From positions 4,836,001 to 4,900,000 of the forward strand of contig JANJGN010000034.1 in NCBI GenBank assembly GCA_026770705.1: 64,000 nt of DNA, given 5' to 3'. Below are positions 9,680 through 56,500 of the stretch, piece by piece. Position numbers and translations under genes: made by a program. Each line of letters begins with the position of its first letter. Positions within the stretch are counted from its first letter, which is position 1. Source of the stretch: Isurus oxyrinchus (lineage: Eukaryota). The notes under the pieces are model-generated. The model worked only from the letters and a program-made list of their open reading frames with translations. It ran no database searches and had not been told where the DNA came from.

Positions 9680-9810
9680 ATATTTTGGAAGCTGAAAATC
9701 AGAAATAGAAGCAGAAAAATTGCTGGAGCAGCTCAGCAAGCTTGTCCATATCTGTGCAGGGAGAAACAGATTTAACACATTTAAATCCGTATGACTCGTC
9801 TTCAGAACAG
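9680..9810 (+). mobile_element. Penelope-like terminal repeat fragment
   Basis: gctgaaaatcagaaatagaagcagaaaaattgctggagcagctcagcaagc... homologous to 33765-33885, 44230-44295 and 62870-62940. Confidence 0.65.
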
Positions 9811-12299: not shown

Positions 12300-12635
12300 T
12301 GAATTCAGCACTTACTTCCTCCCTGCGGATAGGTCTGTGATCCATTTGAGGCCACGGGATTGGGTCTTTCCCTCGTCTGTCAAAGCACTAAGTCCGAAAG
12401 TCATTGGCAGCTTGGATAAGTGAGGTCATCGCATACCAGCACAGGAACTGTGATATTCAGATACCAGAGGCATGACACACTTCATTTCTGTTATTGCCAC
12501 AAGAACAAATTGTTGGAGGAAATCCTTAGTCCATTATTAAGTTTAAAAAAAAAAGTGAATCTGAATTACCCATCGAGAGGGATCGAATCGAAGCATTTGC
12601 ACGCAGGTCAGTGAACAATGCTCTGAGTTCAATAA
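12300..12635 (-). mobile_element. Decayed tRNA-derived SINE
   Basis: gggatcgaatcgaagcatttgcacgcaggtcagtgaacaatgctctgag resembles a reverse-complement tRNA-like head with B box. Confidence 0.4.
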
Positions 12636-23456: not shown

Positions 23457-23567
23457 CTGTTATGTTAGCCATTGAGGTTGCAAGGAGGCCCAGTAGCGAA
23501 AGCACTGTAATTCCAGATCCCGACGAAAAAGAATGTAGAGGAACACGAATTGAAGGAGCTCTGAAAG
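23457..23567 (+). CDS. 111-nt phase-1 exon (xVMLAIEVARRPSSESTVIPDPDEKECRGTRIEGALK)
   Basis: ttctttgtttttgcAG acceptor and AAG/gtaaga donor; open frame overlapping ORF 23462-23770; ATG at 23462 could be a start codon. Confidence 0.75.
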
Positions 23568-32500: not shown

Positions 32501-35500
32501 TCTTTTAACAAGAGCTCATTTAACATTCTGCTTTGTACTCTATATTGTCTTTTTTGCACGTTTGTACATTTTCTGTTTCCTCCTTGGAAGACTACGTCCC
32601 AGTCGGCATTGTGGTATCTTGGTTAGGAGGAAAGCTCAGTTATACAGATGCGGATGAAAAAGGTTATCTGATTTTCATTCTCGGTTTTACCCTTTATTTT
32701 GCACTACTGTTGTCAAAATCGCCTAAGACGTCATTGAATACATAATTTGTCATTTCTTCCCCCTTTTTGATAGTGATCGAGAAGTTGATCCAACTCCAAG
32801 AAGTTGCAGGTGATACAAAACAATTTATTGTGTTCGTTTTCTTTGAATGCAAAACCAGGTACGGTTAAAATATATAATGGGACGGTGAGGGCAAATTAAG
32901 ATGCAAGGGGAAAAGAACTCGTTACGGGAGAGCCATGCTTTAAACATATAGAATGCAGAAGAGCTCCTCATAGAGGTTATTTCACAGACGTTTGAAAGTG
33001 TCTGAAATTAGACAATTAGTAAGACAAATAATTACTACAAAAATCTCTTCATGAAGCGTTGTAAAACCCAATAGTACTCGAGGACTGCAGAGGAGCTTAT
33101 ATAATACCTTTACATATAAAAAAAGGTATAACATATCTCCAGGGAATAAGAGAGCACTGAGCTTAACATAAGTAAGTTAAAAAATAGTGGAATACTTTCA
33201 CAAGGGTACGGGAAAAGTTACTTCTACAATGCAAAATATAATAATGAATGAACACCATGGGAAATCAAGGGAAAATCTTCCTTGACCAAGCATATTCAGC
33301 TTTGGACGAAACACTGAAAGAAAGTGTGCAATGTTTATTCAACAGATCTGATTTATATGGATATTCAAAGGGACTTTGTTAAGTTGCAATGCGCCCTAAT
33401 TATGATTATGTTAAGATAACTAGATTTTAGTTGTGAAGTGGCAGAGTTGGTTGCTACCTTTTTTTCAAAATAAAAAGAAGAAAACGGAACTGAAGAGTAC
33501 CTTCTGAGCATGATAAGGTTGTGATGCGGTGTTGCTCAAGGGTCAGTGCTGAATCTACTTATTTTCAAAATGTACATTAAAGATTTGGACTTTGTAAATA
33601 ACAACAAAATATCCACATTAGCGAACCTCAGCCAAATTGAGGGTCACTGTTTACTGACCAAAACATAAATTAATTATTGAATGGGAGCAATGATTTTTTG
33701 AAATTGATAAGTTAGTTTGGGAATAATCCTGCTGCAAAATCAAATATGAGCTAAGAGAAAAATATTGTGGTTGCTGAAAATCTGAAGCAAAAACAAAAAA
33801 TATTGGAAAAACTCAACAAGTCTAAGAGCATCTGCATAGAGGAAACAGTTAACGTTTTGAGTCCAGATGACACTTCATCAGATCTAAGACGTCTAGAAAT
33901 GTGGTGGATTATAAGCTGCTTGAAGGAGGTGGGACAGGTAGAGTTGGATAGAGGGACACTGATAAGTGGAGGCAAAAAAGGGACTGCTAAAAATGTCATA
34001 GGCAAAAGTTCAAAAGGTGCTGATGGTACTGATATTAGCTGCGTAATGTGCTAATGATGATATTAAGGGAAGAAAACAGGACGAGCATGTTACAGATAGC
34101 ACCATTGTGGATTGGGTGTGGGGAAGCAATCGAAATCGGCTAAAAGGTAGAGATAAAGCACAGGACAGAATTACATTTATTAATAATGAAAATAGGTGGG
34201 GAAAGAAAAATACGTTAAAGTATCCATACAAAATATAAATTGTTAGAAAAAGGGAGATTGGAAAGGATTCGGGGATGGGGGAGAGAGTTGTTGAGCTCAA
34301 TATTAAATCTGGAAGGCAGTAAGGGGCGTATTCAGAAGATTAGATACTGTTCCTGCAGTTTGCGTTAAGCTTCACTGGAACATTGCAGCAGGTCAAAGAT
34401 GGACATGTGGACATGAGAGCAGGATGGTATGATGAAATGGCAAGTGACAGGGAGGTCTGGGTATTGCTTGCTGACAGAACGAAAGTGTTCCAAAAATACA
34501 TAACTCCATCTTGCTTGGCCTCTCAAATATAGAGGAGACCGCATTGGGAGCAGCGAATGCTGTATATCAAATTGAGGGAAGTGGAAATGAATTGCTGCTT
34601 CACTTGGAAGGAGTGTTTAGGCCCTTGGACAGTGAAGAGGGGGGGCGAGTAAAGGGGCAGGTGTTTTACCTTCTGCTGTTACATGGGAAGGTTCATTGGA
34701 ATGAGGATGAACTTTTAGGCGGTGATGGACGAGAGGATCAGGGTATCCCAGAGGCAACAATCCTCGCAGAGTGCCGCCAGGGGGGATCAATTGACGATGC
34801 ATTTCTTGGTTTATCTGCTGGAGTTACCAGAAATTTCAGAGGATGATCCTTTGAATGTGGAGGCTGGTGGGGTGATAATTGAAGACAAGGAGAACACTAT
34901 ATATGTTCTGTTAGGGAGAATAAGTTGTAAGGGAGGATGCGTGGGAGATGTGCTGGGCACAGTTGAGCACTCTGTCAACCAGCGTGATTATATGAGCTAT
35001 CATGTTGTGTTTGAAAGAATAGGAAGCACAGTTTGTGCCTGGAATATGCAAGTCTAGGTGTGCTAAAGGAACCAATCGGACTTTGAAACAAATTACACCA
35101 ATTATTAAATGATGTTTGAAAGGATTGTATTCTAAAGGACTGGCACAGATGCAAATAATATTTAGAAGGACGATGTTAATTGTTCCATCATGTGATGTGG
35201 ATCACCCATGCAATGACAAACGTTGTTTCCCTTCAATAATTACCCTTCAGGATGTTGTGGTAAGCTGGCTTTTTGAACTGCCATAACACATTGGATGCTG
35301 CTGTACACCTACTGCTGTTGTCCATTGAATTCCAGGAGCTTCATTCCCACCGCAGTGAACCAATGGCATTATAGCTCCAAGTTTAGTTTTTTTTAATGGG
35401 AATTTTCAAGAAGAGGTCTTTCTTGATTAAGCCTGTTGACGTTGTCAGTATAGGTGCTGGAGGCGTCTAGGTTCGCAGATTCCTTCAAACGAGACCTGTT

Positions 35501-38500
35501 GATTTGCTGGTATGTAGTGCGCACTGCTGCTCTTGTTCATTGGTCGTGTTGTATGTGGATGTCTAATGTGGAGCAAGTAGGCTTCTTTGTTTAGTGTACT
35601 GCTGTGTGTTGCGTGTGGGTTATTTGGTGCCAACCAGTTCCAAGCAAGAGGAGAGTATTCCATTACAGTCTTACATAGTTTCCTGTGGATTGTTGATTGG
35701 CGATTTGCATCAGGAACTGTCTTAAATGGTTCTGGTTTTTGAGACCTGCTCTAAAAACGGCAGTTCTTGCATTGTTATTTTAGCTCACTTTCTGCTAAAT
35801 CTTACATGGTACTCTTCAGGAGGTTGATAGTGAAGTGATGCGTGATGATAATATCATTGATGGTGAATTGGTGAGAGTAGGATTATCTCTTAATGGAAAA
35901 GTCCATTTCCTGGAAGTTGCATGGTACGAAATGTGTTTGTTCCATAAATGCTGCATTAAGCTTGCTGCATATTCGCACTGAATGCTTTTTTACCTTAATA
36001 TTTGAGATCAGTAGTGAACTATGCACAATCCTCAGCGGACATCCCTTTTTCTGCCATTCTGATGGAAGGGGGCTCATTGATAAATGAGCTAATAGCTGTC
36101 TTGAAAGCGGACACCATCCTGATCAACTGCTAAAGTATGCCTTGAAATTGCATTGAATGGTCTTGGAAAACTTCACCCAGCTGCATTTTGCTGGTGCGAC
36201 GCTCAAGCAACTAAAGCGCCCCCACCGCCTCCTGCTCCAACACACACAGACACACAGTGACCTATACTCTTTTCAAATATGTGCCTTGATTCCACATTCA
36301 GCCAAATTCTACACTGACATCAGAGAATGTACCCTTACTGTGAACTGCTGATTTCAACTCTTTATCCATGTTTAAACCAAAGGCTTCTTCACAAGGCGTT
36401 TAATAAGGTGCCTCAGCAAAGATTATTGTGGAATGCAAAAGTTCATGTTGCACCCGGTAATGTAGAGGCAGTAATAGAAGATTGGCAGCTAACAGGAAAG
36501 AGAGGGTAGACATAGATTGATCAGTGTTCATGTTTGGCATGATGTGATGCGTGGTATTTCAAAGGGATCAGTGCTAGTTCTTAACTCTTTACGATTTATA
36601 CAATTTTGAATTAAAGCACCGATGGCATGGTTGCTACATTTGCTGCCGACACAAAGATACGTGGGAAAGTAAGTCCTTAAAAGGGCATAAGGTGGCTACC
36701 AAATGACATAAATAAGTGAGTTGAGTAATCAAGGATTTTGCAAATATAGAACATTGTGCAAAAATGTTTGGTTTTCGATTTTGGCAGGACGAATGAAAAA
36801 TAAGCATATTTTCTAAATGGTGAGACATTATATAGTGGTGAGATACACGAGGGTATTTGTTTTAGTAGGTCAATCAAAAACAGTTAATATGTGCACACAA
36901 CAGTGATTAGCAAAGCTCATATAACGTTATCAATTATTGTAATCGAAATCTAATAGAAAAGTTTTTTGTTATGCTTCAGTTATACAGAGCATTGGCGAGG
37001 CCATGCCAATAGTACGGTGTACATTATTGATCTTCTTATTTCTGAAAATTTGTGAATTTATTGAAAAAGGTTCAGACAAGGTCGCCCAGATTTAATACCT
37101 GGAATAACCGGGTTCTCTTATGTATAACGGCTAAACAGGCTCGGCTTGCATCCACTGGAGATTGGAAGAGTACGAGGGACCTGCTGGAAACATTTAAGAT
37201 CCCGACTGGAATTTACATTGGGATTTTAGAATGTGTTTCCTATCTTATGGAATAATCAATAACTAGGGACACTGTTTAAAAATAAGGGTTATCTATTTAC
37301 GACTGAAATGACGATTATTTATTCTCAGGCAGGTTTGCGAAACAGTGTAATTCTCCTCCTCAAACTACTATTATCGTTACAGTAGAGGTAGATAAACTCT
37401 TGATAAGCAAAGGTTGGAATGATTATTGGGGGTAGGCAGGGATAAGAAGTTCGGGTAATAGTTAGATTAGCCACCATGTTATTGAATAGCAGAGCAGTCT
37501 CGAAGGGCCGTGTGCCCTATTTCTGCTAATCAAATGTTTGCATGTTAGCAAACATGTTGGGGGAGGAGTGTACTTTACCAAAAACAACTGCACATCTGTG
37601 AGATGTTCGTTGTTGTTGTGTAAATGCCTTTCCTAGCATGGACAACCTGAAAGATCCTCATTAATTACTGTAAGTCGCCGATGAAGTTATAATTGGCAAC
37701 ACTGAATTTAAGCTGTATTAGTGGATGGCACAGACTGGGGATGTTTATGCATTTTTTTGTCCAAATGCCAGTGTTTTTGAAATAATTTGTGTCCGGACTA
37801 GCCCTGGAACCAACTCCTCAGCCCTATTGCGTGAATGTTGTCTAGGCACCCAACTATTTCAGTCGCCAGCTCCTTGAACTTTTTTTTTCTCTTTATCACC
37901 TGGAGTGGATTGAAATGGCCGAAGATTGGCAGCTGCGATGCTGGATAGCTCAGAATTACGCCCATATTAATCATGGGCTCGGCACTTCTGCCTGAAGATG
38001 GACGCAAATTATTCAGAACTGTCAATGCTCTAATGCAAAGCACTCCTCCATCTATTAGGTTGCGAATATTGATGGAGCCCCGCTCCTCATATTCTTTTTT
38101 TTTTTAATTTTCAAAAACATTACAAAACTGGTTGTGACATGATTGATGAGTTTTCACTTCGTCGGGGAACCTTTTATTCCTGTCTAACTCAAGCTGCGTA
38201 CATCGTTTGAAATACAATGAGTATTGTACACTAGCTTTAGCAAATTTAAACCTCACTTTTTGTCATGGCTGGAGCTCCTCAAAGTATATCATGGCACATT
38301 AATTATTGAACCAGAGTATGCGCCCTTGGCTAGATTGTCAGTGCTGAGTGAAGAATCGCTGGTCCATTAAAGTGCGGCCTCTAGTGGAATGCTATTCTGT
38401 TACTGATGCTACATAGAGACTGGATGTCATGCTTTGAACTTCTGGTCCTGTTTGAAAGCTGACATGCATTCACAAACAAAACAGGAAATTATCAACAGAG

Positions 38501-41500
38501 CATCCCATTCTCTCTTGAAAAGTAATGCAGATGGATGACCAGACATGGGCCTTTAAAATGTCGAACTTGGAAGCTTGGCACTAAAATCACGATTTCCCCT
38601 TTTGTGAGAGACTACAACTCGGGGAAGCAGTTAAAAAAATATATATATATTGCAATAAGGATGACTTGCTCCGCTTGGAAGACCAAGAGCCTTTGGAGAT
38701 CTGTTTTACAGAGAGCAGTGCAGGCGCATTCAATAAATGTTCCGGAAAAACAAGGAAGCCAAAGTTTACCGGGAAAAGAAATACATTTTGGATTTAAGGC
38801 CACAATCCGATTATCCATGCTCTCAGAGAATAACAGGGTGTGATGTGCCGCGGGGGCAGCACGTGATTGGTGTGTCTTGGTGGCGGTGCAGGTGGAGGAG
38901 TGGTGGGGAGAGTGTGGAAATGAAGCGGAGTGGCCAATTGGCCTAACTGCTCTCCAATCCTTTTTTTTTTCATTTCGTGTATTAGAAAGGGATCGCTTGA
39001 ATATGCTGAGATAGTATTTCCTCCTGGAGGAGAATGCAAACCTAGAAATTATCAAAATGCTATAATTACAAAAAAAAACTCAACATGCAATTTTGAAGAA
39101 CTACCCTCTCCAAAGTATTGTGAAAGTTTGGAAGTTGGAAACGAACATTGGTTGAAAGGAGTAGTGCAGTTGGATTAAGACACGCATATGGGGTTAGCAA
39201 AGCTAAGGCCGCCATAATAGAGTCAGGAGGGGAGGAGTCTCAAGTGGATCGTAAACATAAACTCTTTGAGCCAAATAACGAGTTTCTGTGTCGTATTTCC
39301 TATTTAATTACATGAAGTTAAATAAGGCATTTCAAATTTTAACTCGGTGCCAATTGCATGTTCATATATTTTTGAAGTAAAAAAAACAACATATTTTGAA
39401 TTCTATGGTTTGAATTGTTTCTGCATCAATTGCAGAAAATTGCTTGGTGGCATTATTTTAACTGCATGTCTAGCAGAGTGTACTGCCGGCAGCATCATGG
39501 ATTACAGCTAAGAATCAATTGAACTGTCTCCAGGTATAGAGCTCAAATATACCGTGGAAGTGTTTCCTTTGTCTTGCTCACTTGTAGTTTAGTGTGTATC
39601 ATTTTGGCACCCATATTGAAACTTACACGGGAAGGCGGCTGATATTTTTCAGTGTGTGATGCCATAAAATTTGGAGCAATATAAACAGGGAAAATATGTT
39701 AAATACATCAGCTTTCTTACTCCAACCCTGCTATGTGTGCTTGCTATACTAATGATTATGGTTAAGGCTAAATGAATATTATATTGTAACTGCTGGTCAA
39801 ATTTTTCCGATTGTGCGACAGACCAAAACAATAGGCCATGAATCTGAGAGAGTAACGAATTAACCCTGTATTAATTTCAGCAGAAACTATGCTTCCGAAA
39901 TTTAGTTGGAACGTTTCCATTTCTACCATAATGAATTTTAGACTAAATTAGATAAGCACGCATTGCAGACAGCGGCGAGTACTTTGCAGTGTGAGATGGC
40001 AAAACAGCAATGTATCCAATCGCCGTCCCATTTAAGATAGAGTCGGGTCCAATCTGATCGTTCCACTAAAATTATCAAAACATATTACTTTTCAATGACA
40101 GAGTGGATTGTCACCCAGATCCAAGCCAAATAGGAATAAATTGGAACACAAATGCTAATAATATTAACATATTCGCAGAACAGATGTAAAAAAATCACCA
40201 CAATAACTGTCATGTTCTTTTTAAGTGAATAAAACAAACTTAGAAAGATGTGAGTAAAATTGAGGTACAATCAATGCGTTCGGAAACGAGGCAGGCAATT
40301 TATGGACCACAATGTCCAAGTAAACATTTTAAGGAGGTAAAAACACTATTCATGTTTAATTTGTTTGTTACAAATATTCTACCGCCATAGGTTTTCGAGT
40401 GTATTGAGGCATTAGTGGAGAGATAAACTGTAAGCATGTAGCGACTGTGACCTTTCATCCGTTCTGATGCAAGTTTCCATAGCTGAAATGTTCATTCTGT
40501 TTGTCTCTCCAAAGGTGTTTTCAGACTTACTGATCATTCCTGGCAACTTTTCATTGTATTTCACATCTTCAGTATGCACTGTATTTTGATTTTGTAAAGA
40601 GGATTTCCTTTTGTCTGCTTTGAATGGCAGAGGAAAAAAAAGAGTATATATAAAAAAAACGTTCTATTCTGATGGAACCAATAAAAACATTTTGTCAGCA
40701 CAATGTAACATTCATTCCAAACCCAAGCACAGAAGGACAAGGGAAAACCCCAAATAACGAAAGGCAAATTGGATCTGGAAAGAAATCTCAAAGTGCATGT
40801 ACACCATCTGTATCTCAACAGAGATATACGTCTGTGCACGGTCTGCATTCAGAAAATATTTATTTATTTCAATATACAAAATAGTGTCCTGGAACAAATT
40901 CAGCAAAATGTGGCGCCTGCGTACCGAGCTCAGAACAGCAAATCATTGAAAACCTTGATGCAGAACAACCCCCACCCAGATGTTGCACGAGTAACAGTTC
41001 TTGCAAAAACAAAACATATCACCCAGAAAAATCCTATGCTCATCGAATGTAAGACCCTGCCAGATCAGTACAATTGTATTTCAACTTTGGGCGATATTGG
41101 AGTTTGGGCCCATTAAATGCTGTAATCAACTTTATTTTCCACCTAATTAAATGGAAATTAAATTCTTGTGGGTTCTTCAAGAGAAACAACCGAACAGCGC
41201 AAATAAGCAACGTCTGTTCAGGGCAACTTTGTGCTCATACAATGTAAAATATAGCACAACCTCTTCTATACTCTGAACAAAAATAATTTTGGACAACACA
41301 TGAAGCAATTTATTTATCACGTAAATAGAAATTTGATCAATGCATGCAACGATTTAGAAAAGACATGCAAAGCGACTGTGCTTCAACTTTCATTTAAAAT
41401 TGTACAGCTTGTTTTATTATCATTTATAGAAAGAACAATTAAGCGGAAAGATGAAGGTAGGATCTTTAGGTTTCTCTAGTTAATTTTGTTTTTTGGAGAT

Positions 41501-44500
41501 GTTGTCAATAAAGACAACTGTCGATAAAGAAACATCGGAATTTGACAAATAATGGAAAATAAATGCTCTCAGTATTAAATGGTTCATTTATGTCCTCAGG
41601 AATGTAACTGTTTTTTTTTCATGAGGTGTCGTTGGATAGGACAGAATTTGTTGTTGGTCCCTAATGGCCTTTGCAAAGTGGGCATTTAGGATTCAACTGC
41701 ATTGCTGTGCATCTTTCTGGAGTCAACTGTCAGCCTGACCAGTTACGGGCAGCAGCTTTCTTTCCCTAAAGGACATTAGTGAATTAGATGGGTTTTTATA
41801 GCAATCCAGAGCAGCTCAGATTTTTTTTTTAATTCATTGGTAGCGAGTTTGGAACCCGGGCATTAGACTGGGAGTTTGGATTATTAGGCTTGCGACGATA
41901 ATACTACTATTCCCTCCGTTTCAGCTGACTCGTCAGCCAGCCGGCCGGTCAGACCGAATGCTGGTTAGATACACAGTACTATTTTACTTTTCTTTGCCTT
42001 CAACGGAGTCAGGAAGAGTCGGGGAAATTAACCAGAATGTGTAGCATATGTCACCAATCGCATTTCTCAGTCCAGCTGTTTCATTGGACTGAAATGGCAC
42101 GTAACAAAATCAGTGCATATTTTGGGCTCCAGACCGATATCTTTTTTTTTTCAAAGTTGGTCTGTCTGCACGAAAGCAAAGCCTGCTTTGATCAAGTTCT
42201 CAGAGTGAATTGATTTTAGTCTTTGTGAAGAATGAAGCTGAAAATCTCAAGAATAAAATTGCAGTAAAATTCCATACGGGAAGTAACAGCTGACGATTTA
42301 TTTTTCCAGCACCACTGAGTTTAACATTGGCGCTAGTGTGCCTGTACCACTCGGTTTCTCCGAGAAATTGCTTTTCCAGCGCATGATTCAGGGCAAGGGA
42401 GCATTTTCCTCCGAGGCTGCTTTTCACGCATTCAAGTTAATAAATTTTCAAGCATTAAAGCGTATTGCAGGCTGAACGATAATTGTACAACATTCATGAT
42501 TACGTTAAAGCCAAACGCCATATGTTCCAGGAATTGATTAATTCAGTTAAAACCTTTGGAATCAAAATTAGTCCAATAGCCCGAGGGACCATGATATTGA
42601 CACGAATTTTGCTTTTCAGTTAGTAAAGTTTTGCTTCCTGTCGCGTTCATGTCCTGTCACGTGCAAGTTCGTTACGTCGTCATCTGTAATGTTTGAATGG
42701 TCCACTGACACGTAATTTCTTCGGTAAAGTCCTAGGCGTCGGCGTACAGCAAAACCTAGACTTACACAGCATGAACTGGTTGGCTCATACCTGCGGTTTT
42801 CTGGCATTGAATCTCTGCTCTATAGATTTTTCATTAGCTCATGCAAGTAAAGAAGGGCCACACCGAGGCCATTCCATGTCTCCGGAGAGGGATCCAGATA
42901 GTCTCAACCCTCTTTCACCTCTGTAGCACTGTAATGCTAATTCGCTCAAATGTACCTCCAATTTCCCGTTTAAATTATTCACAGTCTTCTCTTCTTCTTA
43001 AATGAAAGGGAGATTATCCAAAGCTTTAACAAACATTCTGTACGGTAATTCTTACTAACGTATCACCTGCCTTTCTTGCCTCAAACTTTTAATACGTGTT
43101 CCTTCGTGTTTCATTGCAAGAACAATCTGAGGACATATTTTCATAGAACGTGGATTTGTTGATAAATTGGCACACAACTTCAACTTAATTCGATACCTTT
43201 TAAGCAATCGCATGTTCAACTCTAAATCCTCGAACTTTTCTTGGGTTCCATTTGCCAACAACGTATAAAACAAGCAGAATGCTTTGTGGACTCAGAATAC
43301 TTATTGGTAAATGGAGGGAATACTCAGCCTCATCATAGACAATGTGAACATATTTTGAATACAGTTGTTAAAAAAGTCTTGTAATTCAATTTAAAAGTAC
43401 ATTCTTTGTTAAACCATCCTCAATTTTAAGATCTCTCCGAGAAAGAAATTATCAACATAAACTTCCATGAAACTATTCCATGGAAAACGTAAAATAAAAG
43501 CAAGAATTTTGTTTGATTGAGTTATTGCACAACAATAATGCTTATTTAAAGAAAATCTAAAGTCATGGAACTTATACAATGAATCGTAACAGAGGTCCTG
43601 AATGAACCACAAAATGCTGAAAGTTTATGTTTTTTTTTCACTTAAACAGAAACAACTTTATTCCCTTTATACTTGCATGCATGTTGTCATGTTCACCGGT
43701 TAACCTTTCTGCCTATGGCTAAAGAGAAGGGCTGGAATAAGTCCTTAAACGTTTAAGGGTAGAAAAAAATAATAAGTGCAACGGCCAACTCAAGATTGAG
43801 ACCATAAAAGTCAATACCTGCTCACAATAGTTCTCACTATCACATTCGTTTCTATTTGATAGGGTTTGATGGGGATGGTTTGGCAAGTTAAAGCCGATAA
43901 AATAGTGCACTTCACCTCTTTGGCAACCAAACAAAACCACTTTTCTAAAAAATGTGCAAGTTTTCTTTGTCATAAAATATACTTCCATCACCGGAACACC
44001 GTTAAATCAATGCTACTCTAAAGCCCAAGGCAGTGATTTAATCTATCTCGCGTTCTAAAAAGCAGTGAACATTGATTCAGGTGGAGAACAATTCATATGT
44101 TAGCTCCAATTTGTAGTGTGGTGTCAACACCAAAAGCAAGTGGAATAAGTCTTTGCAACCATAATCTATTCTGTTTCTTTGCATGTGAACGACTTACACC
44201 ATATAGAGATAAAAAACAAAAAGCTTTGTATGCTGAAAATCCAAAACAAAAACAGAATTACCTGGCAAAACTCAGCAGGTCTGGCAGCATCGGCGAACAT
44301 AACAGTTCTGTTGAAGGGTCATGAGGACTCAAAATGTCAACTGCTTTCTTCTGCGCCGATGCTGCCAGACCTGCAGAGTTTTTCCAGGTAATTCCGTTTT
44401 TGTTTCACCATATAGATCTTGTTTCGACTCGTAGAAATTCGTGACCTGCTACATAATGTGGAATCTCGGTGAACTTGAACAGACCCTACTCTCTACTGCC

Positions 44501-47500
44501 CATGTCTTCACTCACCCCAACTTCCAGTCATCCATCACCAGTGTGCTCAACATACTTCAATAGCTCCCGTTGTTGCAATGGCTGGAACCAGTGATTTCAC
44601 CATTAACATTCTGCAAGAAAAAATAATTCAATCTGCTGGGAATGAGAAAAGAAAGTGCATTGCCACGTAATTTCATCACATCAATCGAACGGCATCTCCA
44701 CTGCAAAAACATTTTATATAACTATCTTCCTGCATTGTAAACACCGGTAGAATTGTTTGAGTGAGTATTCTAGTATATATATTTTCTTTTATATATCCAA
44801 CACTCTTATGCCCCAATACCCTCTATTGCAATTCTTTATTGAGACCAGTTTTGTATTTGCATGTTGACTAAATTTTTTATTTTAAATTTTAATTTGACTA
44901 CAAATCTGTTGTTTTATTCGTATATTGCCAGTCTTATTGTGCTAGTCACTTCCCCTATCATGTTATTATTAGTATTGTTATTATTATTATTATTATTAGT
45001 TACATTATAATTATTATTCTTATTATCATCCTTGTGCCACTTTGACGAATTCACATCGCATAAATCATTTTTTTTGTTATCTTCTTCAGTATTCTTGAAC
45101 AGGGAGAGAAGGGTCTTTGTGTTTTCCCGATGGAATTATTAATAAAATATGAGAGTTGGAATTAGACAAACAATCTACGTTTTTAATCCGAGGATGCATG
45201 ACACAAGTTCAAGCACACATTCGGTACAATTAGTTTCCGCATTCCCTGGCTGTGGTATAACATCACTATTTTGCCCACTTCCTATTTCCTAGAGTGACTG
45301 AACGTATGATCAGAATTAGATGTAGGTGGTCATATTTAGTTTAATTAATCAAGCGCGGTACGACAGGGTAGGAAATGTCACAACATCAAAAAAAGTAAGC
45401 TCCAGCAGAATCAAAGATTGGTAAAATCGGCTGTGGTTCGAACCAGCCTTGATCTTCTAATTCCATGCCAAGATCAGCTGTTTATCACATTTACACTGAA
45501 GTACCCGAGATATAATTCCATTCCGACAGGTCCATTTGAGGGAACGCTGGACAAAGCCACATTCTCTCCAGCTGCCCCTTGCATAGCATTATGAATGCAT
45601 TTTCTGCAGTCAATCACCATTTTCCGAATTATATTCACAGAACTCGAAACATTGAGACAGCTAAACGACGAAAAAGGTGTGAAAAATTTTGTCTCTGCTG
45701 TGCCTCTGAAATGTCCATTGAATAGCCCATATTGTGCCAGATGCGGCTCATTTAGGTGCACTGCTGCTTCTGAGTTGCATGGTTCTGACTCAAAACTCAG
45801 TTCCAGGAGGCTGACCATGTAATGTCAATACCCTGGTAAATATATCCTTATGAGTTGTTTTATCCTCACTGGCGATGTTAGTTTTCCGACTGTTTGAATT
45901 GTAGAATGATCTAATCGTCCTCTTGAACAATTGTGAGCAAACCCCGAGGTGTTTTCCTCAGCTGCCTGATTAATGCACTATTAGCAGGGAGCTCGGCCGT
46001 TATCTCTGAGTTCTTTTGGAATCAGTGCACAAAAGTGTTTCCACTTTACAGACGTTCAATCTAACAGCATTTCACATTAATTTAGTTGAGCGTTAAGGCT
46101 TTTGTGAATTACTGAGTGGAGGGTGGCAAAGGTGATTTTGAAAGTCAGAGTGTTAGGTTGTATTGTTCAATCAGCCTAAACCGAGCACGAATCCAATGCA
46201 GCAAAGCAATTCTTGTGTATTGCTCCTTTAATGATGGATCTGATATTCGAGCTTGCTATCAGGGGTGGTTTTCTATCCATGTATAAAACCAATACATTTA
46301 TTTACCGCTGCAGATGACATCATTGGGCAGAAAGAAACAGGTATATTTATGGGATATTTTATAACCAAGTCTGCTTGTGAAGATCTGAAAATTTATTCGG
46401 AATTCAGAAAGTTATGATAATTGGCCTCTTTTGCAAAGAGGTTCAGTTTCTAAATTGCGCTAAGAATAATGCATCTATGATCAGCGTGCTGCGAATTTTT
46501 GAATGGAGAAGAGTTAAAACCTGTAAATTTGGTACCATTTGAGAACTGAGTATTTGTATCACTTTCCCCTTATAAGTTCCCTAAATCTGTTTTTCTCCTA
46601 GCAAGCTCAAGTGTATTTTTGAGTGTGTGTGCGGGCGAGCGTGTATGTCGGTGTGCATGTGTGTTGGTGTGGGCGTATAGGTGGCATTAATTATATGGGT
46701 GCTTGTTTAACAAGTAGGTGATATCATTGCAAACATTGAACAACCAATCGTTGCCGAGTTTGCATTCCTGCGAGCATCTAAATAACTCCTGAATATGATG
46801 AAGCAGCATGATATTTTTGTGTACACGTTCAACAAAATATATAATGCCTTGTCTTGCAATAAAATTATCGATCATGACTCTTCTCTCAAGAGCGTTTCGA
46901 ACCCCCACACCCATCAGGCGCTCCTTTCCCAACCCCATATTTAATGCCATTAAATGCATGTGGCTGTTTTCCTCCAAAAATGAAATGAACGCAGCTATGT
47001 TAATCAACATTTACTGGAAGAACACGATTCACCGTACAGCCTTTTAGGAATTTGTAAAAATATACACAATATTAACATTCAGCCGAGCATATCCAAGTTG
47101 CACCTCATGGTTAACAATGTTAACGACCATAAACTGTGACGTGCATTTGGGAGTTGGACAGTCATATTTCATCTGTACTGCGCAAAATTATGTTCCTCCA
47201 TCTCTCTTCTTTTTTCCAAAAGTGGCAACCTGTTTAATACATTTATTCTCCACATGTCAACAATTCCGTTGACTTCTACACTGCAACAAAATTCTGAGGA
47301 AAGACATATCACCTGAATCCCTCGTTGGATTCATTGGTCAGTGTCATTTATTTTTGTCCTCTGATTCTGCAAATGGATATAAAGAGGGGTCGGAGGATAA
47401 TTCAAAGACCCCTTAGTAGCTCATGAGTATCTGCATTAGATAATATACAAATTATTATACGTCAAAAAAAGCCTGCCGGGAAACCTCAGGCAACCTGACA

Positions 47501-50500
47501 ATATCTACAAGGAAGGAAAAATAGTCATATTAGACGATACGGTGACTCTGCTTCCCGATCTAAAGATGCCGAAAGACGGTTTGCTTTCTCAGCAAGTTCT
47601 GTTTTCATATCAGTTCTCCAGTAACCGCTATGTTTTTTCTTTATCATTGATATTTTTGTAAACTTGAAACGATCTCGACAGTAGTTGAATACTTTGCCGC
47701 CGTCCTAATGCATAAGCACTAAAAAACATGTAGAAGCAAAACCAAAAGTGAGAAAAAGATGAGAGTGATTCCAGAAAACGTGGTTACATGTGTGAGAAAA
47801 TGTAGAAATGTGTAGTTGGCCGATCTTAGAACATAGAGGTTTGAGAGTTGACCTACCAGACAGCCACGCAATGTTGAATAGCTAAAAAGAAGAGACGTAG
47901 ATGAGTATATTTCCACTTTGGGGAGATTACAAATGTGGTTGCAATGTGTTTGATATGAATGCTCATAAAACAAAATGAAGAAATAGGAAGACAAGCCTCA
48001 AATTGGCATCTGTAGAAATGTGGAAAATGCTGACACAACGAGCTATTGAATCCATTATTTCAATGCAGTTAAGTGGAAACTAATTAGCGCGAGAGGGGAA
48101 CAAGATCTAAAGAATGGTTGGAGGGAATGGCTTATTACTGATGCTCCCTACTTTATTATTCTATATATGTAACAATGAATATGCTTGTCTGTTTTCTTCT
48201 GCCAGTTATCCGAGAGCTGAATACACTTGTTGAGAGAATAGGTGAGAGATGTTCATTAATTTGTCCTTTCAGTTAAGGATACTAAGGCAACCAACGTCAA
48301 CGTCAGCGCCAAATTATTTTTTTCGACAAAGTGACAATATATAATTTGCTAAACAACTCTACAGACAATCAGTGAGAAGGAAAAAAAAAGCTTTGATTTA
48401 AGTTTCGATACGTTGGATAGAGATTCACCAATTAAATAAGTCTTCAACCTGTATAAATGTCGTCTGAACAGGACAATATGGGTGAGCAGGATTCGGATGG
48501 CAGATTTGTAGTTGAGAATATGATACCGGACAACCGCTATCTGTGGAAAATCATGGAAGGTAACATGATATGTATGTCAATAGGACAAGGGCTGCAGGTA
48601 GAAGGGGACAGTGCCACCTGGAATTACCCATCCACGTCACTCACCACACTGTCTTGGAAATATATCACCGTTCCTTCCCTTTCACGAGATTAGAAAACTG
48701 GAACGCTCTCTTTAACAGCTAAGTGGATGCACCTAAAGCACATAGGCTGCAGCAGCTGAAGAAGGCTGGTCACCACCACCTTCTCAAGGGTAACCTTTGA
48801 TGAGCAATAAATATTGGCTACGCCAGCAAACCATACATCCGATGTGTGATTTTAAAAAAAAAATGACTTTCCCTTAAGGAAGTAATGGTCACGCAGTCAA
48901 TTGGAATATGCAATGGTGGGTGCTGTGGCAATGTAAGGAGGCTGGGGAAGGGGGAAAGGAGGTGGGTTGGGGGGGCGGGGAATAGTTTCTTAAAAGCGGA
49001 AAATCAGTGCAGTTGCCTGAGCAATAAAACTGAATTGTGTCATTGGACATGCAAAGTTAATGAGTTCACACTTCTGAGACATGCAATACTTCACACTTGG
49101 CGATACATTCATTAGATAAGTGAGCCATGAAGATATGTCATGGTAAGGAAGACAAAGGAGATTATAATATGAATACAGATGCCCTTGGGTTAATTTAGAC
49201 AAGCTTGAACCTTGGCGAGTTTTGGGGATGGAGTTTTGCTAAGTATGTCATTTGTGCAGATGGTGTTCACTAAGGACATTGATTTCCAAAAGTGTGAATT
49301 TTGTTCTTTCGAATTAGATATATGTCATCAGGATTATTTTCTTTCATTTTGACTTTCCATGACGTGATGAGTGATAGTTTTACCTTAGGTGTGTTGACAC
49401 GATATGGCTGGAGCTAAACTGATGTGGTGTTTGGTGACTTAATTGCAACTGCCGCACAAAGCCTGTTTGACTAACCGTGAGCCTATAGCATGGTCTAGAA
49501 AGTATTCGGCTTGATTTCTGTGTCGAAAAAAAAACATAAAAAAATAACATTTCGTTTAATTCAGTATTGTCTGCTCAAACTCCTTTTTTAGAGGCAAAGA
49601 TAGCGAAGAGAGATATAGGTAAAATGATTAATGCTTTAAGCTCTGCAGTATACTTTCTCAACTGAATAAAAAGCCATAAAAACAATTCCTGTCTTAATGG
49701 AGGTATCTGTATCGACTTGTTCATGACTTAGATTTAGCACGGAAAATATCCAAAAGAAAATTCTCGGAATAGACAAGTGTCTTTTTTTTTTACAAAAAAA
49801 CAAAACCAAAGGTAAAAATTTCACTGTAAATGGAGCACCGACGTATGTAATCAAAGATGACTGAGTTTCAGACTTCGGAGAGAAATCTTTGATTAAGGTG
49901 GCAGGGAGTAACCTATGTTTGGTTTCATAACAATGAATGCTAATCAGGCATTTCTGCAGAAATAGACAGCAATACAGAATACCAAACAAAACCGTCAACA
50001 AAGGAACAGAGCAGCACGGGCAAGTCATTCAACGCCATGAATTTACACAAACATTCTGTTAGTTCGTGGTTGTTACGCAACTTTGCAGCAATTATGCAGC
50101 TTTCTTCCATTACCCTGAACCGCCTCCCTACCTCAAATAAAATGTGTTGTATTTTACACTTGAAATTATTTAACCACAATTACATTTGTGTGGGGGATGA
50201 TCGAGAGTCAAACTAGCTAAGGAGCCCTTCATTGCAGTTGCCTTTAGCGGTCTAGCTCAAGTTATGTACTTGTCGCCCCTTGTGCTATCTATCACATCTG
50301 ACCAATGAACCGGTCCCTTTATCCAGCTACGCTGTATGCTATTTCTGCCCGTGTTATGCAAGCCAGTAAGAACAACTTGTTTTTATGTTTAAGGGGATGC
50401 AAACTTTGCCTTCACAAGTTGCACTTCTGAGTTTTCACGAATTACAAGTTCTGATTACAAGGAGTGCGTAACTTATACGACTTCGAATTTTACTTCATTG

Positions 50501-53500
50501 TTACCAGTGTCTGGCCTCTAATGAATATAAATTAATTAACTTCAGCGTTCGCATACGATGGACCATATAATGTAAAACTGATATATATATTTCTAATTGG
50601 ATCAGGTTATTGTTATTTTATTGTTCTGGTAAATCAGGCAAAAAACCTCAGGTTGACGCTTTGGATACTATCACAAAGATTGTTCCCTGCTACGTTAATG
50701 TGAGATCTCTCACAGAACTCTGAAATTTAGTTTGGTTTGATGTTCAAGGTCAGTGTTCCATTTTCAATGTAATATTTTCCTTTGGATCTGTCCCTTAAAA
50801 AGATCGAAGATGAAGCACGGATTTTCGTTTTTTTTGTTGACAAACTTCTGTGAATCAATGGTGAGACCACCACTAGTAAATATGTCAATTCCAGCTGGCG
50901 TGCTTTGGAAAACTCTCCTGAAGCGGACACGTTTGGCATAAAGTCTTGCAGTTTCCAATATTACCTTTCCTAGCAGATGGTATCACTGATTTCTGTCATG
51001 TCGCTCGTTTACTCATTTTGCATGTTGTATCGCTAGGAAAAATAACTACTGTGGACACCTCAGTAAAACAACTGTATGCAATATCAATAGCGGACGAAAT
51101 TTTTGCAATATCCAAATGATCATTCCAGTATCACATTTTGTCTGCATTTGATTTGCAGATGTTTCGACCTGCGATAAAATGAGCAATGGTGAGTAATCTG
51201 AGAGCCGAAATTGGACATAGACATAAATGGATCACAGGCAGAATCACGCTGTATTCACCAGATAATAAGGCCTTTTTTCTCGTATATCAGATTTCACTGT
51301 CATTCCAATCCACATCTTCAGAATTTTTGCGCTGTTAAAGCTTTTTCCAACTCAAATGGTCATTCGCTGTAATATTGAATGATTGCAATGCCGAACATCT
51401 GCATTCAATCGTCAAGCATGGCCCCGAGCTAACAGGGGCGGGTCATTCCACAGGTCTACCTTGATGTCAGTCTGAGCTCAGTGGCTTCCTACAGTGGTCC
51501 ATTGCTGAATTTAAGATGGAATATCAATCCGGGATCTACTAAGTAGGCAGATTAAAGGGTTTAGGAGGACTTTTAACTTTTAAAACTGCGAAGTCCGCAA
51601 GTATTTTGCTTCTGTTCTTTTTAGGTTTTCTTGTGCTTTGAACTCTTGACTTCTTTCCTTAATTCAATTTGCATCGTGACAGCTGTTGATCATCATTGCT
51701 TTCTTAGTCCAAACGGTACTATTGAAGTAGTGTACATAGTGATGTATATTGTATTACTAAAGTTAGTATTATTAACATTATTCTTAGCATTAATATTGAT
51801 ATTTTTTTTGGAGACCACTGTAGAGGTCAGAGTTTATTGGCCAACCATGATTGACTTTGAGAATGCAATGTGGCACCTCCATCTGGAAACATTGCAGTCC
51901 ATCTGCAGATGTGAAGGGGATTGAAGTGTAGGTTCTGCAACAGTGAGAGATTGGCAACAAATTTCCAAGTAGGGTGAGTGTAACTTGATGGAAACTTGCA
52001 ATTGGTGGTGTCTCATACGCTTGCATTCCTTGTTCTTCTAGGATTAGAGATTGTGAATTGGAAGCTGTTGTCGAAGGAAAGCTGTTGAGCATGTACAGTT
52101 ACGTTGTGCACAATGCTGCTGTTGCACATCGGTGTTGGGGGCAGCTTATACCTAAGTAAATATTGGAATGCCAATGCAGAGGGTTGCTCGCCCCGGGTGG
52201 TATCGAGCAATGTTGGTACGGCAATCTTACAGAAAGTGGAGCAAGTTCCATAACTCTGCAGATTTCCAATGCATAGATAGACGAGAGGCATTGCAGATAT
52301 GAGGTGAGCTGTTCGCCTAGGAATTGCTGACCTCTGACGTTATCATAAAGCCACAGCATTCTTATGACTGTTGAAGTGCATTTTCTGCTCAATACTATGC
52401 TCGAGAATGTTGATTGTGCAGAATTCAACGATTACAATGACAGTGCATGCGAAGGTGATAAAGCTGGATACTCGCATGATGAAGATGGCTATTATCTGAA
52501 GAATAATCGGAATGAGTTAATCTTTGCAACTTTAAATGATAATGACTAAAGATCCTTAACTACAAATTGCATCCTATGGAAAATAAAGTTATGAATGGCA
52601 GACCTCTGGAAAATTTAACAATATTAAATCTAAATTTGGCATTTCTTTTTGTTTTTTTTTTAATGTCTATATTTAGATTTGGAACAATTGAAGCTGGAGG
52701 TTCATATAAATGGTGAGGCAACTGTGTAGAAAAACTATAGTTTGATCATTTCAAATTTAATCAAACTCAAATTATATCTTGAAGTATTTGAGTGAAAAAA
52801 GCTAACATTTACATTTCTTCGCTGTGCTAAATTGGAACTTTCTCTTTTTCGTCCACGATGATGCTTCTTTGTGATCTTTGCTGCAGAAAAAACGTTGCTT
52901 GAGAAGGAAATGGGTAAGGATCCAATTCATTTACTTTAAACTGTTAGGTTTTGGTAATTGAACTGCCTATGCCTTCTTCATTAAACAAAGTAGAGATCAG
53001 TAAATTGAATAAAACCCTGCTTGGTATTCTTCATTTGATACAGCAATAATAATCATAACATAACCATTTTGCAACAATCAACTTTACCACTGAAAATGCA
53101 GCGTGCTAAAACAGGATGTTAAAGAGAGTAAGGAGCAATGTATCTCCGATTTCCCCTGAGGCCAATGGCATCACCGATAAAAGTCCTTGGACAACTCAAT
53201 TCACTCCATGCAAAATTAATTTTAAAAAGCAGCAGAAGGCACCGGATATGGCAAAGGAAATGAACCCTGTCCAGTTCACTCCTTTTGTGCTGTAGGCTTA
53301 TTTTCCAACAAAACACCGACATTGCCAACATTTCTCACAATGGTTACATTTCTGGCATCGTCAAAGTGCACAATTCCCAAAAACAAGTTATACACCAAAC
53401 TCAAGAAAAATCCAAACTTTACAATTACTGACTTGTTAATCGACTCTTAATCAGTAGAATAATAATTGACGGAGGGATCGTTTAAATTGCCAGTAAGTCG

Positions 53501-56500
53501 AACTTATAAGCAATAGCCTGAACACTGATGTACCGTGTGGGTACCGCTGGAGCCAAAACGCTTCCAGCCTCCCTATAGCCTTTGTCGAAACAGGGACAAA
53601 AGAGCTGAACAGCGTTGCTGAGGTAAGTTAGACTGTTTTTGATATCAAGGGAACAGTTGACCAATCATGGCATCAAGTCGTCCCAGGAAGCTGAGCTCAA
53701 AGTGGATTAACGAAGTAAGCAAGGGGGAAAAAATCTTCCAGTTGCTGCTCTACATACAAGAAAAAAATCGCTGTGGTCGTGGGAACTCAATTATACCAGC
53801 CCCATTATCCCAGCATCAGCAGTTCATCAGGGTAGCAGCTATGATAAATCATCTTGAGCTGCTTCATCACGATTTTAACACAACAAAACAGTGCCTCATA
53901 TTATACCAGATTCTTCAGGTACTTAAATTTAAAGATTTCAGTCTATGCAAACATGCAGCAAGAGCTGGGCAACAGATTGAAAGTTATATTTCCGCCACTC
54001 AGTGCCAGGTACTGATAATGGAAACATCCAATCTTGAAATCCAAGATCTTACCTTTGCTGAATCCCTTCATATGAACATATTTGGATTAAAACAAACTGC
54101 AACTTTGATTCGAACATTTGATTAAATGCTGTACTTTTGAGAATAGTTCAGAGGCTGGGAAACCTGAATGAGAAGCAAAGCTTTTGAGTACTCGAATACA
54201 CTCTGCTATACGCATTGAGTCAAGTCCGGAGCGTGAATGATTATACTCCGTTTGCCTCGATGAACTCAGCTCCAACAACAATTAAGAAGTGTGATACCAC
54301 TCTGGGAAAGGTAACTCTCTTGAAAATGTACTCCAGTGGCAGGATTATATATTCCATTCCACCACCCCCTGCACCGAATGGAAGGAAAATGCAACATTTC
54401 CAAAGTTTAGGGCACGGACGCAAATCCCTCTTCGAGAGCACATTGCAAAAGTGTGGCCTATAGCACTTTGAAAGACAGGGGAAGGCGAATTCTGCTATCA
54501 AAAACGATGACAAGTGCCCCTTTAAATCACAACATATCCGTATTTTACTTTCAGTTACTTGTGAAAGTACATTCACCATGGTCGGAATTCTTAAATATTT
54601 AACCTAAGTACCCAAACACATCCGAAAATAGCGAAGCCTGTGGAAAAGTCGGTTAGCATTTACAGACGTTTTTGTTTATCTCTCACTCGACGCACATGGA
54701 CACTGGACGAGCTTAACGAATCATTATTTTTCCCTACACGTTGAATGAGCTGCTTTTATGATCCATTGCAGAAAACACTTTGAATCCTACCCCCAAAGCA
54801 TTGGTCAGAATGGAGTCCAGAGGATTGATCCAGCATCGAAAGTCAATAATGAACAAGTTGGTATTATGGGTGATTTTGAGCGTAAGTTTCTAGTGGTGGT
54901 TTACCTACGAACACCTACGCCCCAAAGCCACCATCCCGAGCCTCATCCCCTTCTTTTTATGGCGGAACAGTTAAGTGGGTTGATGTTGAATTTATTCCAC
55001 ATTCACCAAATAATGCGTAGACGCCAGAAGTTGCTGTGAATTACGTTTTGCAATACCAATGCTCACTAGCATACTCGCCCTTTGAGTGCATCAAACTTGC
55101 AATTCACTTTTTAAAACTTCACTTAGGTGCTGCTTCCCAACTTCTGGATAATAGAATCATTAGCTTATTCCATCAATCTTGGCAAATCTGCCTTACAATT
55201 GATTTTTTTTTTTCCGTCAATTGTTCGGAGTTCTAAATATGAATAGGTAAGTATTTGCCGTTTTAGTCGCAGGTAGGATCTTGGATGCTCTGTGCATTCC
55301 ACAAAAATTGCAAACCACATAACAGAGCTGGAAAATAGCACATTAAAGACATTCATGTCCAATATTTGAAATTCAGACTTGAAAGCATTGGGTGGAGTAA
55401 AACCACCTCTTCATATGTACACAGATTGAGACTAGACAGCAAATTGTAAATGGGGAATAAGCAGTTACGCAAAAAGATACGCTGGAGAATTCTGGAAGAA
55501 ATCTATTGTTACTTTGTTGTTCCTACTAATATTAGTTGTACTCCAAATTGCATGCCAGGTATTTCAAAATGGTTTTTCATATGCTGTAATAGCGTTCTGC
55601 AAGTCAGGGACACATTACTAAAACGGGACGGGAATGATTAAACTGATTTTATGTACGTTCACTAGCATAGACAACAATTGATGAATGATTAATTAACGGT
55701 CATGCAGGTTGTGATTAGTGATAACGTTTGAAATCATGAGGGTACCTAGATAGCTACAGCAGAGTGCAGCATGTTATCCTAAATTCAAACAGGAGGGATT
55801 TCATTTTTTTTTACTAACTTTTTAGCAAAGCCATTTTGGCAGTTATGTACCTTCTTGCCAGTGTGGCTTTCGAAATCAGTTTAAGCTATCTTTGGAAAGT
55901 CATTTGTCTTAGCCGTTGCAAATTTGGTCCTTCCCCTGAGTCAAGCAATGGTGTTTTCCAACATTCTGAAAGGGACATCACGGTGCACCCCAAGGGAATG
56001 CTGTACTGTTAAAATTCCCAACCTGTTGAGGACAAAAACACCCTACATCTCCATCTGCCCTGTCAGGGTGCCGCACATGATTCCACGGCACTGCTTCAAC
56101 GTACACAAGAACATTGTACTTCCCCTCCCTCCCAGCAAACCATAAATCATGGCCGGACCTACATGCATGACGCAAAAACATCCCTCCAAAACCAAGTTGT
56201 AATCTTTTTAATTTTGATGATTGCGCATTATTCTTCACAGAATGACATTTTTTCACCGATCATCATATTACCCAGTGCAGTTCGAAATTCAAATTGCCCA
56301 CAAAGCAATTTTGGAATGTGTTGACAGCTGTCCTTTAAATTAATATATTTTTTCTCCACTTCGCCCTTTGTAGAACTGTTCCAGTACGATGCAGAGACGC
56401 GTGAGTTGCTTCATTATTTATTTCAACAGAAAACATAGTAATATTATAATACAGGCAACATCAGACATTAAGTAATCTAGCACTTGCTCCGGCATTCAGT

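Follow-up and report, generated by a model that had tools for sequence, protein, structure and literature searches.

Phase-1 micro-exons of a shark genome spell a three-heptad unit and probably belong to a very large gene for a coiled-coil rod with a B30.2/SPRY head

The window analysed here is a stretch of 64,000 nucleotides (nt) from the shark Isurus oxyrinchus (C34:4836001-4900000 of a 4.98-Gb genome, where C34 stands for contig JANJGN010000034.1). It contains a series of very short coding exons that probably form the front of one very large gene, whose micro-exons, some 350 by extrapolation and all of phase 1, would be joined one after another into the message for a long, parallel coiled-coil rod with a B30.2/SPRY head, comparable to a greatly lengthened tail of a butyrophilin (BTN) or BG protein. 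A sequence-only reading of the window had reported three consecutive pairs of 36- and 27-nt exons as copies of a 21-residue repeat. The exons and the 21-residue unit proved to be real, but the reported pairs amount to only a few per cent of what appears to be a megabase-scale gene ending in a B30.2 exon. We refer to the gene whose front holds these exons (A1 to B4) as gene 2 and to its upstream paralogue as gene 1. Positions without a prefix are in window numbering, negative numbers lie upstream of the window, and the prefix C34 marks positions on the same contig.

The six reported peptides map to plus-strand exons of 36, 27, 36, 27, 36 and 27 nt (A1 to B3), each flanked by AG and GT, each of phase 1-1, and joined without a stop at any junction. 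When 864 kb around the window were scanned with a generic splice-site model, open phase-1 candidates of 27 nt numbered 81 on the sense strand and 8 on the antisense strand, those of 36 nt 79 and 10, and those of 21 nt 36 and 12. At the antisense rate (18 candidates of 27 or 36 nt per 864 kb), 0.41 would be expected in the reported span, where six are seen (P=5e-6), so these six exons are not a product of chance. When the window and the next 176 kb were held out from the first version of a model trained on the locus, A1, B1, A2, a 30-nt exon and both exons of a fourth pair (A4 and B4) scored 16 or more, with B2, A3, B3 and a 33-nt candidate below 16; the cut-off of the locus-trained scoring is 15. 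The eight introns of the span hold three weak extra candidates (scores 11.5-14.7) against one antisense, and the generic scan gave one further weak 36-nt candidate at 43009-43044, for which the paralogue has no counterpart. After A4 and B4 the candidates in the window read 27, 27, 36, 27 and 27 nt, which shows that strict pairing stops at that point.

Joined together, the 12 residues of a 36-nt exon and the nine of a 27-nt exon form a unit of three heptads, as had been proposed, and a profile of 43 such pairs from gene 1 bears this out. The register is that of a regular heptad, with a at positions 2, 9 and 16 and d at positions 5, 12 and 19. Large apolar residues occupy position 2 in 95% of the 43 pairs, position 9 in 70%, position 12 in 56% and position 16 in 84%; position 5 is apolar in all (Cys in 29/43), and position 19 is Lys in 36 of the 43. 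The period is 3.50 over 46 spliced exons of gene 1 and 3.51 over the first ten micro-exons of the window. The invariance of L5, L8 and I16 across the three reported pairs is confirmed (shuffle P=0.0014), but L8 is no core residue, since position 8 is a g position with a large apolar residue in 5% of the 43 gene 1 units. Nor does the invariance extend as a rule, for the fourth pair keeps L5 and lacks L8 and I16. The junction pattern previously likened to PKG-I amounts to the a16-d19-a2-d5 core that family members ordinarily have, with Lys at d19. As to the proposal that the next two exons (30 and 33 nt) again total 63 nt, the 30-nt exon has good sites and the 33-nt candidate has a poor acceptor (score -3.0 in the generic and -2.8 in the trained model), leaving the sum plausible but unproven. 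In the dense part of gene 1, 36- and 27-nt exons alternate in 91 of 98 steps once three exons that differ in length are set aside, whereas 20,000 shuffles average 49.5 and never exceed 70. The register of gene 1 at successive 36-nt exons shifts several times, yet is constant over 21 in a row.

At 4.0055 Mb gene 1 opens with an exon of 111 nt, after which come counterparts of A1, B1, A2 and B2. The window likewise has a 111-nt exon ahead of A1, and the match of these five exons to the first five of gene 1 identifies the reported exons as the front of the next gene, gene 2. From A3 to B4 no counterpart was found in gene 1, and the next shared exon corresponds to window position 109686. The sections follow one another alike in both genes, the 111-nt exon giving way to an irregular 36/27 front, then a 21-nt section, a 36/27 body and a short tail before the SPRY exon. 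Gene 2 would span 1.54 Mb from its 111-nt exon to a likely terminal B30.2/SPRY exon at C34:6395819-6396339 (Pfam SPRY, E-value 1.7e-13), and 906 kb of this was read. The exons of the window likely join this SPRY exon at 6.396 Mb in one gene, to judge from the sequence, because gene 2 is collinear with gene 1 and no other close SPRY exon lies between 4.817 and 6.396 Mb. The contiguous stretches at 5.30-5.44 and 5.68-5.80 Mb are unbroken arrays in which no terminal-domain motif occurs. In the 906 kb read, a model trained on the locus called 188 exons on the sense strand against 18 on the antisense strand. Among the gene 2 calls, 72 are of 27 nt, 68 of 36 nt and 33 of 21 nt, and scaling of the sampled parts extrapolates to about 350 exons and about 3,400 residues. 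Coiled coils rise by 0.15 nm per residue, and on this model the rod would be about 0.5 micrometre long. At C34 5.88-6.24 Mb, 15-nt exons replace 27-nt exons between the 36-nt exons, an exchange that shortens the unit by four residues and would give a stammer-type unit of 17. A few micro-exons end in T rather than G (255461-255481, C34:5685491, -320768, -296522 and -36511); these have a weaker donor and would make a stop with the next exon, and are possibly dead or poison exons individually.

Gene 2 is one member of a cluster. A SPRY exon 19 kb upstream of the window, at 4.817 Mb (Pfam SPRY, E-value 3e-14), has four close paralogues on C34, at 2.709 and 3.474 Mb on the minus strand and at 6.396 and 7.497 Mb on the plus strand; apart from these five exons, 145 SPRY matches were scored, of which 141 are weaker and on another contig. 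In the DNA sampled, micro-exon arrays on the matching strand lead up to each of the five exons, and the cluster of arrays covers about 4.8 Mb of C34. A 27-nt exon immediately precedes the B30.2 exon in all five paralogues. The minus-strand arrays (ending at 3.474 and 2.709 Mb) and the plus-strand arrays (ending at 4.817, 6.396 and 7.497 Mb) stand head to head, and the gap of about 30-55 kb between the diverging arrays (C34:3945000-4011000) should hold promoters. The third plus-strand array, which follows the 6.396-Mb SPRY exon, is a duplicate of gene 2 that lacks window 14374-255192: C34:6433690-6475000 aligns to -8173..14373 and +255193..271321 at 76-83% identity and resumes at 21-nt exons, so that the roughly 241 kb missing from it include the 111-nt exon and the entire reported span. 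Within gene 1, -210525..-195629 (C34 ~4.625-4.640 Mb) is a 7,455-bp tandem duplication at 99.2% identity that carries one 27+36 exon pair, either a very recent event or an assembly artefact. On a second contig, C21, 141 of the 150 scored SPRY matches fall within one 35-Mb stretch (82.9-118.2 Mb), probably a large TRIM-like cluster; a match at 89.72 Mb (E-value 5e-35) stands well above the others there and may belong to the micro-exon family.

Comparison with the paralogues indicates purifying selection. From A1 to B2, gene 2 differs from gene 1 by 0.15 nonsynonymous (dN) and 0.85 synonymous (dS) substitutions per site, a dN/dS of 0.18 (Fisher P=2e-4); the 111-nt exon is less constrained (dN/dS 0.63). 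Against the younger duplicate, nine micro-exons are 94% identical in regions that are 76-86% identical overall, with dN/dS 0.38, and the SPRY exon gives 0.45; micro-exons and SPRY pooled reach P=0.026. The acceptor AG is conserved at 9/9 and the donor GT at 8/9 of the aligned micro-exons, the ninth donor being GC. Five other called exons had no clean counterpart in this duplicate. We rejected tandem DNA repeats and transposons as the source of the exons, which long unrelated introns isolate from one another and whose dN/dS is below 1.

Relatives of the family occur in other cartilaginous fishes. With the SPRY domain of gene 2 as a HMMER query, the closest single-domain matches are in skate, catshark, electric ray, basking shark and elephant shark, in proteins annotated as short and TRIM-like; short relatives named TRIM-like or butyrophilin-like occur in these fishes and also in the whale and epaulette sharks, and most of the models have 100-460 residues. 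Those scanned carry only SPRY or PRY-SPRY domains, with no RING or B-box in the six examined for them (P0019, P0022, P0024, P0026, P0029 and P0049). In a tree of 43 selected SPRY domains, which is unrooted, the five paralogues fall together with ten relatives in a single clade (100/100) apart from the sampled TRIM and butyrophilin rows, only two of which outside the clade are named butyrophilin; the tree places no group firmly next to this clade. Row labels for Ig-bearing proteins, which came from a crude motif, played no part in this reading. The best match among solved structures is the B30.2 domain of BTN3A1 (E-value 7e-20), which assigns no family because TRIM58 scores nearly the same. The most informative relative is the elephant shark (Callorhinchus milii) protein XP_042192744.1, annotated as 'nuclear-pore anchor-like', whose 1,697 residues open with an apolar stretch, followed by a basic cluster and some 1,400 coil-like residues, and include a SPRY domain of the same subfamily, with no other Pfam domain. 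The 12+9 profile fits ten segments of this protein, where shuffles give 0.26 and a TRIM coil control of equal length gives two, although other spacings score 2-8 segments. The family seems to predate the divergence of sharks and chimaeras. Among proteins of 301-2000 residues, a word-based search with the upstream SPRY as query returned distant TRIM-like matches only, a search with the skate protein gave one match, and the ESM Atlas adds, as a lead only, clustered long SPRY proteins whose matches are coil-like (score 0.84). No paper describing the family was found by title or opening of the abstract in the literature searched, which largely leaves out subscription journals and excludes supplements. 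Nor did the literature yield anything of use on the stalk of CD23 as a possible analogue.

Exons and candidate exons of gene 2 in the window (window numbering; paralogue identities are to gene 1)
Feature	Position	Strand	Remarks
111-nt exon	23457..23567	+	phase 1; earliest coding exon found; apolar start, polar middle; strong splice sites; 73/111 nt identical to paralogue C34:4005537-4005647
A1, 36 nt	32774..32809	+	heptad g-a-b-c-d-e-f-g-a-b-c-d; paralogue identity 33/36 nt
B1, 27 nt	41430..41456	+	heptad e-f-g-a-b-c-d-e-f; paralogue identity 21/27 nt
A2, 36 nt	45641..45676	+	paralogue identity 26/36 nt
B2, 27 nt	46314..46340	+	paralogue identity 21/27 nt
A3, 36 nt	48206..48241	+	strong splice sites; no paralogue counterpart found
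B3, 27 nt	49592..49618	+	weaker splice sites; no paralogue counterpart found
30-nt exon	51159..51188	+	good splice sites
33-nt candidate exon, doubtful	52422..52454	+	poor acceptor; inclusion would preserve A4 register
A4, 36 nt	52677..52712	+	just past the earlier-reported span
B4, 27 nt	52887..52913	+	just past the earlier-reported span
27-nt candidate exon, unpaired	56374..56400	+	
27-nt exon, unpaired	59874..59900	+	
36-nt exon	61396..61431	+	
27-nt exon	63144..63170	+	
27-nt exon, last in window	63320..63346	+	array continues past window end

The introns between these exons contain interspersed repeats at 33777-34980, 44230-44405, 48582-48790 and 62855-63012, the second of which is very deeply covered by contigs of same-species runs. 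Antisense in the intron after the 111-nt exon, a 110-nt stretch on the minus strand (30292-30183) has a strong acceptor and donor and one open frame; no similar DNA was found in the 200 loci compared. Long open frames within array introns at -151289..-149244 and +112975..114466 look to us like fragments of reverse-transcriptase retroelements.

We propose that phase-1 micro-exons spliced in series would yield a parallel coiled-coil rod bearing a B30.2/SPRY binding head. Since 36 and 27 nt together spell three heptads, tandem copying of whole pairs would extend the rod with its register intact, and each 21-nt exon would add one heptad in the same way; unpaired, 15-nt and 30-nt exons may then be tolerated breaks of register rather than forbidden states. 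The protein would amount to a hugely stretched butyrophilin- or BG-type tail, an oligomeric spacer arm that keeps B30.2 heads at a distance. The sequence-only reading went further and took the pair as an obligatory unit whose exons are spliced together. Gene 2 does not support this, for there 36- and 27-nt exons alternate in 25/36 (P=0.008), 13/20, 17/28 and 12/15 steps of four stretches, counts that are depressed by missed exons, and where runs of 27-27-27, units of 36-15, a 21-nt section and many unpaired exons also occur. The underlying argument, that skipping a single exon shifts the register, is sound as a selective pressure: coiled coils absorb shifts of 3 or 4 residues and accommodate those of 1 or 5 less easily, whereas in trimers the helix is broken by shifts of 2 or 6, as set out in part of PMC4786415, and a single skip of 9 or 12 residues falls into the harder classes. 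We consider it improbable that alternative splicing includes or skips A and B exons jointly, as coupled pairs, with the rod tuned in 21-residue steps and single skips avoided. The strict alternation in the dense part of gene 1, with its one register over 21 successive 36-nt exons, would agree with such coupling, as would the whole pair held in the 7.4-kb tandem duplicate and, in one case, the start of the block absent from gene 1 at a pair boundary, after B2; loss of 9 or 12 residues would also move the register by 2, in the class that strains coils most (2, 5 and 6; PMC4786415, in part). However, duplication of exons in pairs, with selection acting on them, is enough to account for the alternation in the genome, gene 2 has its many unpaired exons, and five of the seven gene 1 exon copies linked by flanking DNA sit an odd number of called exons apart. 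These copies probably represent one duplicated block, possibly with a missed exon. Annotated isoforms of three related proteins also speak somewhat against coupling, for they differ internally by single blocks of 9 or 6 residues (9 in catshark, P0174/P0029; 9 and 6 in electric ray, P0171/P0172 and P0171/P0026; 9 in elephant shark, P0167/P0024), with no 21-residue difference among them. As automatic models of other family members, known from proteins that show no exon borders, they provide modest evidence against it.

Where the rod would reside depends on a 5' end that is missing: no first coding exon was found for gene 2 or any other cluster member by splice score, hydrophobicity or comparison of paralogues. 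The candidates at -1398, -1225, 16032, 16754, C34:3999104, C34:3997771 and C34:6421476 were set aside, none being convincingly common to paralogues. A T-rich region with two donor-like sites and a long apolar frame is common to gene 2 and its downstream duplicate (-1450..-1225 and C34:6440420-6440650) and is a candidate for a 5' exon. The N-termini of P0049, P0165 and P0052 gave no significant match to the 5' regions. No relative of the 111-nt exon was found in the protein collection searched, and a genome search with it found only itself; the diverged copy in gene 1, found by reading, escaped that search, which shows how weak such searches are here. None of the 148 sense open frames of at least 68 residues upstream of the gene 2 (91) and gene 1 (57) arrays, taken within the locus borders, matched Ig, RING or B-box families, and motif scans for Ig exons were negative. 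In both genes the 111-nt exon opens with 8-9 mostly apolar residues, which could be the end of a signal peptide or of an anchor. With a signal peptide completed in this way, Cys residues at d positions cross-linking the chains and B30.2 heads binding extracellular ligands, the protein would be a secreted or cell-surface fibre, a reading that we hold to be rather unlikely while giving it real weight. The skate and elephant-shark models also have apolar N-termini, Cys at d5 in 29/43 gene 1 units would suit a disulfide-linked extracellular rod, and N-glycosylation sequons are depleted in the elephant-shark rod (2 against 8.7). Against this, no signal-peptide exon was identified, sequons are not enriched in gene 1 (6 against 5.4 expected), and the apolar starts of automatic models can be translated polypyrimidine tracts, as that of P0019 appears to be. 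By the positive-inside rule, the basic cluster after the elephant-shark apolar stretch would fit an anchor with a cytoplasmic C-terminus equally well. The BG and BTN precedent and the lack of sequon enrichment favour a cytoplasmic rod, which we regard with about even confidence and as more likely than a secreted or otherwise located one.

Several observations weigh against a single intact gene of the kind proposed. Besides the missing first exon and the Cys-rich d5 position, which would suit an extracellular rod, the front of the window aligns to XP_042192744.1 no better than shuffles do, and when the canonical spacing is widened by five residues, eight segments of that protein still fit, against ten. 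Taken separately, selection relative to the younger duplicate is not significant for the micro-exons (P=0.13) or for SPRY (P=0.10). The excess of sense over antisense exon calls by the locus-trained model is partly circular, that model having been fitted on sense-strand calls; the exon total is extrapolated from samples, and a gene boundary may lie within the roughly 630 kb of the span left unread. Contigs from four same-species runs over 32700-52690 have joints only at repeat-like stretches and none at exons, and no RNA records were listed for the SPRY exon of gene 2 and its 3' flank, neither of which bears on expression. The same-strand arrays might be one transcription unit with alternative last exons, or several shorter genes, such that the exons of the window need not reach the 6.396-Mb SPRY exon; we judge this unlikely. 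Beyond the SPRY exons at 6.396 Mb (plus) and 3.474 Mb (minus), the next arrays do start without a recognisable 111-nt exon, a first exon was found for no member, any exon can join any other as all are phase 1, and annotated relatives are mostly short. Yet the window array restarts with true paralogues of the first five exons of gene 1, as whole-gene duplication predicts, the 5.30-5.44 and 5.68-5.80 Mb arrays run unbroken with no terminal-domain motif, and one relative is annotated as a single protein of 1,697 residues. Two of the 171 predicted junctions make a stop, which could mark a damaged gene or dead exons, and the front section is less regular than the body of gene 1. That gene 2 is a recently dead duplicate, with real exons whose translation has been lost, is nonetheless the least probable of these alternatives: splice sites are intact and frames open, AG and GT are retained in the aligned micro-exons as given above, and comparison with either paralogue gives a dN/dS under 1, also for the duplicate whose overall identity is 76-86%. 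One very large gene running from the window to the 6.396-Mb SPRY exon remains the reading we favour.

More broadly, and tentatively, cartilaginous fishes may carry an undescribed megabase gene family, with at least five members in tandem here, each of hundreds of 36-, 27-, 21- and 15-nt exons. Since every exon is phase 1, splicing, together with alternative terminal B30.2 exons, could vary rod length, hinge positions and ligand specificity combinatorially. Titin has 363 exons, and gene 2, at about 350, would if real be among the most exon-rich vertebrate genes, its product a B30.2-tipped rod some 0.5 micrometre long. If transcribed as predicted, a very large coding family has been reduced for the most part to short 'TRIM-like' stubs in the annotation of cartilaginous fishes. 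Growth of a coiled coil by copying of micro-exons with the register kept would rest here on a two-exon unit that is absent from the BG and BTN passages of PMC5938342, PMC4046983 and PMC6790196, and may bear on the origin of the heptad-exon tail of butyrophilins and BG proteins. Because a single gene offers hundreds of natural exons that keep or break the register, the link between micro-exon splicing and coiled-coil register becomes directly testable.

The closest precedents are the chicken BG genes, whose tails, in the parts of PMC4046983 and PMC5938342 consulted, are coiled coils in 13-36 exons, mostly of 21 nt (sometimes 18 or 24), with the true heptad lying over two exons and with signal, IgV and transmembrane exons ahead of them. 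Gene 2 shares with these passages a coil spread over many symmetric micro-exons with a split first codon, a heptad that lies over two exons, an exon number that varies between paralogues and a tandem gene cluster; its calls of 21 nt (about 33) recall the BG tail, although they are a minority beside those of 27 and 36 nt. Unlike chicken BG, it has about ten times more exons, mostly of 36 and 27 nt, no IgV exon was found upstream of it, and its array ends, as do the others here, in a B30.2/SPRY exon, which departs from the BG layout in the same passages (PMC5938342, PMC4046983). Butyrophilins have a few heptad exons between the transmembrane segment and B30.2, and skipping of a single heptad exon is reported for BTN3A in the part of PMC6790196 seen; the number of heptads varies among vertebrate butyrophilins according to a portion of PMC12841164. 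Short heptad exons followed by a terminal B30.2 exon, as in BTN3A1 (PMC6790196, in part), are what we also find, with the link between the window exons and the SPRY exon a likely one. In contrast to BTN and BTNL genes, no IgV or IgC exon was found, the exons number hundreds rather than a few, and the SPRY domains group in the separate cartilaginous-fish clade of the unrooted tree (100/100). As to a transmembrane exon ahead of the heptad exons, the sequence offers just the 8-9 apolar residues that open the 111-nt exon. An Ig-bearing butyrophilin was rejected on the 0/148 upstream frames matching Ig. TRIM proteins with B30.2, among them the TRIM39- and A33-like names given automatically to relatives, likewise place a coiled coil before B30.2. 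A 27-nt exon ahead of the B30.2 exon occurs in TRIM and BTN genes alike. Identity as a TRIM was also rejected, as neither RING nor B-box was found upstream or in the relatives scanned, and the coil here, unlike that of TRIM proteins, is built of micro-exons. XP_042192744.1 and the short shark and skate relatives, with their SPRY subfamily and coil-like N-terminal region, belong to the same family. In the micro-exon genes (MEGs) of Schistosoma, long introns likewise separate numerous exons of only 3-81 bp (bioRxiv 10.1101/2023.06.21.545858, in part). They encode secreted proteins in an unrelated lineage, and the likeness is one of gene design only. We know of no heptad rod or B30.2 head in these proteins. 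Although neither the Ig exons of BTN and BG genes nor the RING and B-box of TRIM genes were found upstream, the gene described here is built like the heptad-exon tail of butyrophilins and BG proteins.

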